Shown in pieces: positions 28,199 to 30,706 of a stretch of 64,000 nt of DNA. Source of the DNA: a virus. The DNA lies in IMG/VR virus record IMGVR_UViG_3300015202_000003, positions 21,413 through 85,412 of that record, one strand, 5' to 3'. Every line of letters begins with the position of its first letter. Within the stretch, counting starts at the first letter, position 1. The position numbers and the translations under genes are program-made. The notes under the pieces are model-generated. The model was not told where the DNA came from, did no database searches, and saw only the letters and a list, made by a program, of their open reading frames with translations.

Positions 28199-29206
28199 AT
28201 GAAAAAAATAGATTCAAAAAAACCTCAACTTAATATTTTTGAAGAAGAAAGTCCTAACATTGTTAAAAAAGAGGATTGGGAGTATGTGGGAGAAGCAGAA
28301 ACAACCTTAGCCGATTACGAACACTATATTCCTAAAGTTCTTCCTGACCACGATTTTTTAGATAGACACCCTTTAGTTTGTGTAGACACCCAAGAACATT
28401 TAATTAAAATTTTAAAAGAGCATGAGAATCAAACCCTATGTGCTTTTGACTTGGAAACAAATTCTTTAGACCCGGAGAAAGAGACTTCTTTTATAATTGG
28501 AGTTGCTTTGTGTATGGACGGCATAACGGGCTATTATGTGCCCATACAACACGAATGGGGAGGTTTAGGGAAAGAAGGTTTAGATTCGATTTATGCCTAT
28601 CTTATAGACGAAAAGAGAGAGAAAATTTTAACTTTCAACCAACGTTTTGATTTTAGATGGATGGAATTTAAGGGTTATGATATGAGCGTCATATCATTAA
28701 ACAAAAAATCTTACGACATCCAAACAGGGATTTTCCTTTCGGACACAAATATTTCTTGGCCTTCTTTAAAAAAATCAGAGAAACATTTCTTAGGTGTTTA
28801 TCGTTCCAATTACGAAGAGACTTTGGGGGATAATTTGATACTTTATTCAGTTGATGCCGCTACGGTTACACGTTATGCAGCTTGTTTATCAGGGGACACT
28901 TTAATTAAAACTAATTTTGGCGATTTAACTATTTTAGAAATTAGAAATTACATTGAATCTGGTAAAAATATAAAAGTCAACACCTCTTTAGGAGAAAACA
29001 ATGTATTGTCAGTGTTAAATCAAGGTTTTAAAGATACAATTGAAATCGAACTTGAAACTGGAAAAATAATAATTTGCACAGAAGATCACAAGTTACTGGT
29101 TAGAAACAAAGATTTTTTTTATTGGAAGGAAGCTGGAAAAATTTCAGAAAACGACGAATTAGCTACAATAGAAGAGATTAAGTCTTTAGACCTAAATCTC
29201 TTATGA
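28199..29206 (+). CDS. polA: Family A DNA polymerase fragment 1: 3'-5' exonuclease domain plus split intein 1 N-half
   Basis: AFDLETNSL (Exo I), FNQRFD (Exo II), RYAA then CLSGDT intein block A at 28883. Confidence 0.85.
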   Translation: MKKIDSKKPQLNIFEEESPNIVKKEDWEYVGEAETTLADYEHYIPKVLPDHDFLDRHPLVCVDTQEHLIKILKEHENQTLCAFDLETNSLDPEKETSFIIGVALCMDGITGYYVPIQHEWGGLGKEGLDSIYAYLIDEKREKILTFNQRFDFRWMEFKGYDMSVISLNKKSYDIQTGIFLSDTNISWPSLKKSEKHFLGVYRSNYEETLGDNLILYSVDAATVTRYAACLSGDTLIKTNFGDLTILEIRNYIESGKNIKVNTSLGENNVLSVLNQGFKDTIEIELETGKIIICTEDHKLLVRNKDFFYWKEAGKISENDELATIEEIKSLDLNLL

Positions 29207-29410
29207 AAACAATACATCCTTATTTTTCATTTAAAATAGGTTCAAGAAAGTGGAAGCACGACTTTCTTTTTTGAATAGAAAAAAAGAAAAGGTTTTTAAC
29301 AAACCATGAAAATTAAAAATATTAAGAAAGGTTATAAGATAGAAGTTTTTGATTTATCTGTAGAAAATCAACATCATTTTGAGTTGTCTAACGGTGTTAT
29401 TGCTCATAAT
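28883..29410 (+). mobile_element. Split intein 1 (IntN 28883-29203, 107 aa; IntC 29306-29410, 35 aa)
   Basis: CLSGDT...CTEDHK...; IntC MKIKNIKK...VFDLSVENQHHFELSNGVIAHN followed by Cys; four in-frame stops between the halves. Confidence 0.85.
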
Positions 29411-30496
29411 TGTGATGCACTAACAACTTATCTTTTATATCCCATAGCCTTAGAGTTTACGAAAGAAGCGAAGTTATCTGGCTTCTTAGACAATTATTTT
29501 TTATATCCTTTTCAAAAATGTGAAGAGCAAAAAACAGCAATAGATGTAGAATATCTATTAGGTTTTCAAAAAGAAGTGGACGATGCCTTAACAGAGAACA
29601 CAAAGAAAATATTTGAATTGGCGGGAGAGCCTTTCAATATTTCTTCCACTAAGCAAAAATCTTTAGTTTTAGAAAAATTAAAAGTAAAACTTCCCAAATC
29701 AGAAAAAACGGGTTTATTAAAAGCGAGCAAAGATTTATTGGATAAAATTAAATTAAAACATCCTATTATCCCGTTATTGTTAGAACATTCGGAATTAAAA
29801 CAGAATCGTAATTCTTATTTAAAACCTTTGCTTCGAGGTGTGGGATTAAACGAAGACCCTGAAAAAAATAAAGATGTTGATTTAACTATTCCCAGAGGTG
29901 TTAGATTTTCTTATCAATTAACTGTAGCAAGCACTTCAAGATTATCTGGAGGTAAAGATTCTAACAATAGTTTTTTTCCTTCTAAAGCTAACATTCAAAA
30001 TTTTCGTAAACCTAAATCTCAATTGTGGAGTTTTAGAAAATTGGAAGAAGATTTAGAATTAGCTTCGGATTCGGAATTAGTTTTAGGATATGAATTTAAT
30101 CCTAATTCTGAACTTTATGAATTTAAGTGTGAAGGTTTTAAACCTCAAGCTAACATTAGAAAAGCATTTAGAGCATCTTCTGATAATTCTTGTCTGTGGG
30201 TGGGAATTGACTTTTGCATTGACCCTGAAAGTTTAGTTGAGTTGAAAAACGGTTCAAAAACACCTTTAAAGAATCTAAAAAACAACCCTCAAGAAATTAA
30301 AACACCTAACGGATACCAATTAGCTCATTCTTATCGAGAAACGGGGAAAAAGGAAAAGTGTGTTCTTACTTTGAAATCAGGTAAAAAAGTAGTTTGTTCT
30401 CCTGACCACAAATTCAAAGTTTTAAATTTATTTGGAGAAGAAATTTGGAAACCTTTAAATGAAATTATTCCTTCAGATATAGTCGTTGAAATTTAA
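29306..30496 (+). CDS. polA: Family A DNA polymerase fragment 2: IntC1, thumb/palm region, split intein 2 N-half
   Basis: FNISSTKQ, TSRLSG, NIQN, NIRKAF, WVGIDF then CIDPES at 30215. Confidence 0.85.
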   Translation: MKIKNIKKGYKIEVFDLSVENQHHFELSNGVIAHNCDALTTYLLYPIALEFTKEAKLSGFLDNYFLYPFQKCEEQKTAIDVEYLLGFQKEVDDALTENTKKIFELAGEPFNISSTKQKSLVLEKLKVKLPKSEKTGLLKASKDLLDKIKLKHPIIPLLLEHSELKQNRNSYLKPLLRGVGLNEDPEKNKDVDLTIPRGVRFSYQLTVASTSRLSGGKDSNNSFFPSKANIQNFRKPKSQLWSFRKLEEDLELASDSELVLGYEFNPNSELYEFKCEGFKPQANIRKAFRASSDNSCLWVGIDFCIDPESLVELKNGSKTPLKNLKNNPQEIKTPNGYQLAHSYRETGKKEKCVLTLKSGKKVVCSPDHKFKVLNLFGEEIWKPLNEIIPSDIVVEI

Positions 30497-30706
30497 CTAC
30501 TCGGATTTTTACAAAAGAAATATACCGTGAACAGAACAGGGTATGGTTTAACAAGGAAAAAATTAAATTTGATGAACACTACGCTATACGGGGATTCCCT
30601 GTCTAATATTCAATCTATAGAATTTTTAGAAGATGTAATGGAGATGTGTGAAATAACAGTTGAGAACGAACATTGTTATTTTGCTAATGACGTATTAACG
30701 CATAAT
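30215..30706 (+). mobile_element. Split or nascently split intein 2 (IntN 30215-30493, 93 aa; IntC ends 30706)
   Basis: CIDPES...CSPDHK; C-terminal CEITVENEHCYFANDVLTHN then Cys; a single in-frame TAA at 30494-30496 separates the halves. Confidence 0.8.

Follow-up and report, generated by a model that had tools for sequence, protein, structure and literature searches.

In the structure of the split intein gp41-1, the charge zipper is formed by strand β3 of the N-terminal intein half (IntN) and strand β6 at the start of the C-terminal half (IntC) (bioRxiv 10.1101/546465). The IntC of gp41-1 is negative where that of Npu DnaE is positive, and the charge distributions on β3 and β6 are opposite in the two inteins (bioRxiv 10.1101/546465); a reversal of polarity between these intein types is already published knowledge. 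In the Npu and Ssp DnaE inteins and in Cfa, an acidic IntN associates with a basic IntC by 'capture and collapse'. In the current study, we examined a family A DNA polymerase gene in a stretch of 64,000 nucleotides (nt), hereafter the window, which is part of a 198-kb IMG/VR virus record (IMGVR_UViG_3300015202_000003; ~30% G+C). The gene is broken twice by split inteins, of which pair 1 is DnaE-like and pair 2 gp41-1-like in polarity, because their charge patches fall on the zipper strands β3 and β6. We consider it likely (a probability of about 0.7) that these are two inherited zippers of opposite polarity, reversed by ancestry, and that the reversal probably adds some discrimination between the pairs.

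The polymerase is encoded by three consecutive + strand open reading frames (ORFs). The first (28199-29206) holds the 3'-5' exonuclease part and then IntN1, the second (29306-30496) holds IntC1, the polymerase middle and IntN2, in that order, and the third (30572-32656) holds IntC2 followed by the palm/fingers part, which is itself interrupted by a contiguous LAGLIDADG intein of 409 amino acids (aa; 31136-32362) that was left out of the charge argument. Intein 1 lies in the Exo III motif (Y-x3-D; YAA/CDAL, the slash marking the junction), where the N-extein ends in ...RYAA, and intein 2 lies in polymerase motif A (IDF/CGQEIRV), where the middle extein ends in ...GIDF. Both pairs carry the residues of split class-1 inteins, namely Cys1, a block B (TEDH in pair 1, SPDH in pair 2) and the endings AHN/C for IntC1 and THN/C for IntC2. 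Their halves sit in separate ORFs, with stops at 29204 and 30494 and starts at 29306 and 30572, and the junctions align ungapped with the nearest relative (protein P0002 of locus L004). Removal of the three inteins in silico gave a polymerase of 736 aa that is colinear with the spliced polymerase of this relative, with 38.7% identity and no gaps at the three junctions.

It might be argued that the polymerase is a broken pseudogene whose intein halves no longer splice. In favor of such decay, neither gap between the halves holds a homing-endonuclease gene (no ORF of at least 40 aa was present in 29207-29305 or 30497-30571), and among 5.8 billion proteins only P0002 is closely related to the middle piece. 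On the other hand, frameshifts are absent, the polymerase motifs and the catalytic residues of the inteins are all intact, the exteins are colinear, the split at the motif-A site is kept in L004 and in a second locus, L011, and both IntC ORFs have the usual start context of the phage. Decay is therefore very improbable.

Counts of lysine and arginine (K/R) against aspartate and glutamate (D/E) gave 12 and 19 for IntN1, 5 and 4 for IntC1 (all five being Lys in residues 2-11), 15 and 12 for IntN2, and 0 and 9 for IntC2 when read from ATG 30572. An earlier reading of this DNA (the sequence-only reading) had proposed that the two split inteins are of opposite polarity and that this forms an orthogonality code; its hand counts (IntN1 -7, IntC1 +1 with five Lys in the first 11 residues, IntN2 +3, IntC2 -9 without K/R) were reproduced exactly. 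The boundaries it had drawn also hold, with TGT at 28883 as Cys1 of IntN1 and AAT at 30704-30706 as the terminal Asn of IntC2. Its choice of ATG 30572 as the start of IntC2 is backed by the homologous IntC of L004 and L011, whose starts align with this codon, and by an AAGG motif 12-14 nt upstream, a spacing typical of many genes of the phage and of IntC1. We also considered GTG 30527, with which the net charge of IntC2 would be -5, and rejected it, as this codon has no AAGG motif upstream and the homologue starts match ATG 30572.

In both pairs the charges are placed on the strands whose role in zipping the two halves together is known. Pair 1 has the polarity of the DnaE type, with an acidic β3 (-3) and a basic IntC start (+4 over the 13 Lys-rich N-terminal residues that precede block F), while pair 2 has that of the gp41-1 type, with a basic β3 (+3) and an acidic IntC start (-5 before block F, without K/R). 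The opposite polarity claimed earlier was thus confirmed at the level of the strands, and two split inteins with canonical residues and complementary zipper charges were indeed found. Homology gives good support to a reading of these charges as two cognate zippers with opposite polarity; trans-splicing by the two pairs is predicted.

Pair 1 shares its polarity with Npu/Ssp DnaE and Cfa, and IntC1 likewise has a Lys-rich start followed by VxDxxV, HNF and N-G-x-I-A-x-N blocks. It differs from them in its host, which is the family A polymerase of a phage (Exo III motif) and not DnaE, and in the penultimate His and the +1 Cys of IntC1. The phmmer matches of IntN1 included the RecA mini-intein, gp41-1, and NrdJ-1. 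Pair 2 shares with gp41-1 (PDB 6qaz) the Lys-rich β3, the acidic IntC, a CSxxH block B, and an ending in FANDxLTHN. Both of its halves align to gp41-1 over the charged strands; the phmmer match of IntN2, which covers the Lys-rich strand, is weak. The differences are that pair 2 is hosted by a polymerase (motif A) and not by a helicase, that the +1 residue is Cys and not Ser, and that IntC2, at 45 aa, is entirely free of K/R.

To judge how often such charges arise by chance, sliding windows over the 51 ORFs of the window were scored. A net charge of -9 or below in 45 aa, as in IntC2, was found in 0.9% of the sliding windows, and at least five K/R without D/E in 11 aa, as at the start of IntC1, in 0.56%, so that both IntC values are extreme. 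The whole-fragment charges of the IntN halves are ordinary (-7 over 107 aa in 12% and +3 over 93 aa in 26% of the sliding windows); their signal is local, in the 11 residues before block B (-3 in IntN1 and +3 in IntN2, each reached in ~7%). The ordinary IntN values would suit a compositional accident, in which the charges play no part in association and have drifted in the Lys/Glu-rich, AT-rich proteome of the phage. We regard this as highly unlikely, given that the IntC values lie in the extreme 0.6-0.9%, that the charged positions are kept in homologous columns across relatives, that β3 of candidate split IntN relatives has a mean charge of -2.2 versus -0.3 for 93 internal inteins, and that the zipper is visible in solved structures (bioRxiv 10.1101/546465).

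The relatives indicate where the two polarities come from. In both L004 (P0002) and L011 (P0125), motif A is interrupted by a split intein at the position of pair 2, with an IntN homologous to IntN2, and intein 1 is absent. L004 reads through the Exo III site uninterrupted (YAA/TDAL) and carries a free-standing LAGLIDADG gene (ORF 6586-7422) between its intein halves, as in a classic fractured gene, and in L011 the halves are separated by only 3 nt. Their motif-A inteins have a β3 of +5 and +2 and an IntC of -9 (without K/R) and -2, respectively, and the basic β3 patch of the IntN2 type was seen at +5, +2, and +4 in L004, L011, and a further locus, L009. Since L004 and L011 show the polarity of pair 2 in the absence of intein 1, this polarity is independent of pair 1.

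As for pair 1, IntN1 had no close relative among 1.84 billion representatives searched with phmmer; the best matches were 34-45% identical, and its identity to any protein found is only about 30-45%. The search gave 37 proteins that end with an IntN1-like domain, the ORF of IntN1 itself included. Among the 32 candidate split IntN relatives that were scored, 20 have a β3 of -2 or below and 3 have one of +2 or above, and the xIEIELExG patch of IntN1 recurs in most candidates. The IntN1-like split inteins of the loci L008, L012, and L013 have an acidic β3, with a basic IntC start in all three readable partners. At the same Exo III site, L009 carries a LAGLIDADG intein that is contiguous and has 50% identity to IntC1 and its extein over 80 residues; its β6 is already basic, and its β3 is +2 versus -3 in the split form. 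This contiguous allele fits a zipper that was sharpened in the split form. Each polarity is best explained by ancestry, as a family trait that would have been inherited with the intein type, and not as a local adaptation. A tblastn search of GenBank phages with the middle ORF gave no match. Among viral contigs, the IntN1 query gave no related locus, the IntN2 query only a giant-virus Hint-domain protein, and the query of IntC2 with its extein a terminase with a contiguous intein.

In the PolA gene of L009 (1743-5788; Logan ERR2144996_641), an IntN lies three residues upstream of the motif-A site of the window and is followed, 6 nt further, by an ORF fusing an endonuclease domain to IntC, which may represent an intermediate toward a split intein; the C-terminal polymerase part of this gene appears frameshifted. 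Besides, locus L006 (3467-6693; IMG/VR GVMAG-S-3300013132-210) encodes two giant-virus membrane proteins with Hint-like segments, in one of which the N-terminal block CFHPETLVELKNGSK matches the start of IntN2.

We propose that the polymerase would be rebuilt from its three ORFs by two trans-splicing reactions, carried out by naturally split class-1 inteins that come from two unrelated lineages. Pair 1, at the Exo III motif, would belong to the common DnaE-like type, with an acidic β3 in IntN and a Lys-rich β6 start in IntC, and pair 2, at motif A, to the rarer gp41-1-like type, with a Lys-rich β3 and an acidic IntC lacking K/R. As judged from the homologous Npu DnaE and gp41-1 inteins, the complementary charges within each pair most likely capture the cognate half before folding and splicing. 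The reversed polarity would have come with the two families and would not have evolved at this locus.

As a side effect of this ancestry, both wrong pairings are like-charged at the zipper: IntN1 with IntC2, which would delete the middle of the enzyme, is acidic on both sides, and IntC1 with IntN2 is basic on both sides. The latter case had not been considered by the sequence-only reading. IntC1 and IntN2 stand at the N-terminus and C-terminus of the middle ORF, and an arrangement with IntC first and IntN last is the one used for intein-mediated cyclisation; because both halves are on the same polypeptide, they would react intramolecularly, with circularisation of the middle piece as the outcome. 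Like-charge repulsion would disfavour both wrong pairings and is a plausible but unproven minor contributor to specificity, for which the low sequence similarity between the two inteins is expected to be the main source. In a test of 24 x 24 combinations, mutual orthogonality was seen for 15 of 16 split inteins that are phylogenetically distant, regardless of charge (PMC7090010). Because of this result, and because IntN1 and IntN2 are only 30% and IntC1 and IntC2 35% identical, orthogonality is the default expectation for the two pairs. A complex prediction in which IntC2 was given IntN2 (with extein) and IntN1 together scored 0.32, and a control in which IntN2 was replaced scored 0.43; by the rule of the predictor, such scores speak neither for nor against a pairing.

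The polarity may alternatively have been selected so that two inteins in one gene do not cross-react, repulsion stopping both exon skipping and self-circularisation. The like charges of both wrong pairings and their location on the zipper strands are what stands of the proposed orthogonality code. As an adaptation at this locus it is unlikely, given that the polarity of pair 2 is unchanged in L004 and L011 and that the three readable partners of IntN1-like halves are all basic. Previous work on charge points both ways. A swap of the β3 and β6 charges alone in Npu DnaE left splicing with the wild-type partner in place (bioRxiv 10.1101/546465), while charge engineering of split NpuDnaB gave an orthogonal pair (bioRxiv 10.1101/546465). 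Because of these two outcomes, charge can contribute to orthogonality but is neither necessary nor always sufficient.

Other multiply split genes offer a natural test of such a code. The DnaE gene of L008 is broken by at least three split inteins, whose halves are separated by endonuclease genes. Its piece B, with an acidic IntC free of K/R (-11) at the start and an acidic-β3 IntN at the end, has like charges at its two ends, as in the window, and could thereby hint at selection. On the other hand, piece C has unlike charges, with a basic IntC start and an acidic-β3 IntN, and the next IntC is weakly basic. The same layout as in piece C was found in L012, and P0088, a DnaE middle piece of 206 aa, also combines a basic IntC with an acidic-β3 IntN. 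The NrdJ-like middle piece P0118 (633 aa), which had first appeared as a match of the IntN1 phmmer search and was recognised as a middle piece on a rescan of all fetched proteins, has a basic IntC, an internal contiguous mini-intein, and an acidic-β3 IntN. Comparing the own IntC with the own IntN, the natural middle pieces thus comprise about two that are like-charged and about four that are unlike-charged, roughly as expected if a common and a rare polarity class were assorted at random. Because neighbouring split inteins of the same polarity coexist in L008-C, P0088, and P0118, charge reversal is not required, and the claim of a code is not supported, given these genes and the default orthogonality of distant inteins. 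A general rule, in which selection in multiply broken phage genes favours opposite-polarity split inteins at neighbouring sites and orthogonality can be read electrostatically from the sequence, is likewise unlikely; under it, IntC and IntN of a middle piece would repel each other, preventing self-circularisation, and the outer halves could not skip the middle.

Several points weigh against a reversal that is due to ancestry. The type with a basic β3 and an acidic IntC makes up only ~10% of the split IntN sample, yet it occurs in two of the few multi-split genes (the window and L008-B), and the like-charged ends of these two middle pieces could hint at selection. The sample of middle pieces is small (~6), is biased to IntN1-like halves, and for several pieces lacks the partner halves. 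In addition to the NpuDnaB result, whole-fragment charge swaps lowered cross-reaction in Npu DnaE (bioRxiv 10.1101/546465).

As regards the multi-split loci themselves, the L008 gene (264-6004; ENA ERZ27275033 k141_754674) encodes DnaE (Pol III alpha) in at least four pieces; its endonuclease genes are free-standing and lie at 2534-3388 and 3957-5048. In P0171 the second L008 intein takes the form of a contiguous mini-intein whose charges are the same, and the third site is free of inteins. The architecture of P0118, with two split inteins and one contiguous intein, is like that of the window polymerase. P0096 was dropped as a middle piece for the non-canonical end of its IntC, and when ten IntC sequences were used for a profile search of longer proteins, the matches were mostly long proteins with several contiguous inteins and included no middle piece that was new. 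In P0151 (147 aa), an IntC (...ISHN) runs without any extein straight into the Cys1 of an IntN; the protein could represent a permuted intein or a middle piece of zero length.

The window gene has close counterparts in engineered systems. The pairs CS-NpuDnaE and CI-NpuDnaB, from Shah et al. 2011 as cited in bioRxiv 10.1101/546465, follow the same principle as the window pairs, i.e., mirrored β3/β6 charges against cross-pairing, for three-fragment ligation. They were designed in one scaffold, whereas the window pairs are two natural divergent scaffolds, and because these two differ throughout, charge is not the sole barrier between them. The three-fragment assembly of full-length dystrophin with Cfa and gp41-1 (PMC11271493) matches the layout of the window, N-IntN(a), IntC(a)-middle-IntN(b), and IntC(b)-C, with a DnaE-type intein at the first junction and a gp41-1-type intein at the second. 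This assembly is man-made, while the window gene is natural and has an additional cis-splicing LAGLIDADG intein. The use of such pairs for three-part ligation, which the sequence-only reading had put forward, is thus already known, as is the reversal of polarity. Among natural systems, the 'fractured genes' of Dassa et al. 2009 (PMC2677866) are likewise phage replication genes broken by a split intein. They are described as single fractures, one locus having an additional intein C-terminal part (PMC2677866), while the window gene is broken twice and its gaps (99 and 75 nt) hold no endonuclease gene. A paper on a natural gene with two split inteins was not found in the literature searched, which reflects the limit of that library and is not proof of absence.

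If charge reversal does gate the choice of partner, the specificity of split inteins would be predictable from sequence and multi-fragment ligation sets would be open to rational design. The solid part is that a natural gene matches the independent design of engineers, a DnaE-type and a gp41-1-type pair for assembly in three pieces. The multiply fractured genes of metagenomes (DnaE, NrdJ-like) provide a natural test set for split-intein orthogonality, and the fact that same-polarity neighbours are common in this small set calls for caution against charge as a code. The features of the locus are listed in Table 1.

Table 1. Features of the split polymerase gene (positions in the window).
Feature	Positions	Strand	Properties	Basis
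N-extein	28199..28882	+	3'-5' exonuclease part	Pfam DNA_pol_A_exo1; colinear across junction with uninterrupted relative P0002
IntN1	28883..29203	+	107 aa; net -7; Cys1; block B TEDH	TIGR01445 intein_Nterm; charge count; stop 29204-29206
Acidic β3 patch of IntN1	29027..29059	+	FKDTIEIELET; net -3	Charge scoring of β3
Gap 1	29207..29305	.	99 nt	Between IntN1 stop and IntC1 start
IntC1	29306..29410	+	35 aa; net +1; ends HN; Cys at +1	TIGR01443; best PDB match Npu DnaE IntC 4qfq_B
Middle extein	29411..30214	+	268 aa	Pfam DNA_pol_A; junction alignment
IntN2	30215..30493	+	93 aa; net +3; Cys1; block B SPDH	Domain searches; stop 30494-30496
Basic β3 patch of IntN2	30347..30379	+	KKEKCVLTLKS; net +3	Charge scoring of β3
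Gap 2	30497..30571	.	75 nt if IntC2 starts at ATG 30572	ORF map; start analysis
IntC2	30572..30706	+	45 aa; net -9; no K/R; ends HN; Cys at +1	Best PDB match gp41-1 6qaz
C-extein part a	30707..31135	+	Remainder of motif A, and motif B	Pfam DNA_pol_A; junction alignment
Third intein	31136..32362	+	Contiguous; 409 aa; LAGLIDADG homing-endonuclease domain	Pfam Hom_end, LAGLIDADG_3, Intein_splicing; boundaries from alignment
C-extein part b	32363..32656	+	Motif C (HDE) and stop codon	Junction alignment; domain search

Gap 1 contains an AT-rich hairpin (29219-29286; core AAGAAAGU...ACUUUCUU), after which comes a T run; the minimum free energy is -18.8 kcal/mol (z -2.05). A terminator scan made no call in gap 1, this hairpin being terminator-like yet under the G+C criterion of the scan. 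At many starts in the window (e.g., 2717, 3225, 9062, 20154, 29306, and 30572), the purine-rich Shine-Dalgarno-like motif, where present, is unusually distant (12-14 nt), and the spacer that follows it is A/T-rich and TTAAATTAAAAA-like. Outside the window, the same phage genome (C1) has at least four further inteins, at about 92745-93332, 121813-122220, 124636-125826, and 133561-134286, which we call contiguous because they sit inside long open frames; the whole phage genome therefore has at least seven inteins.

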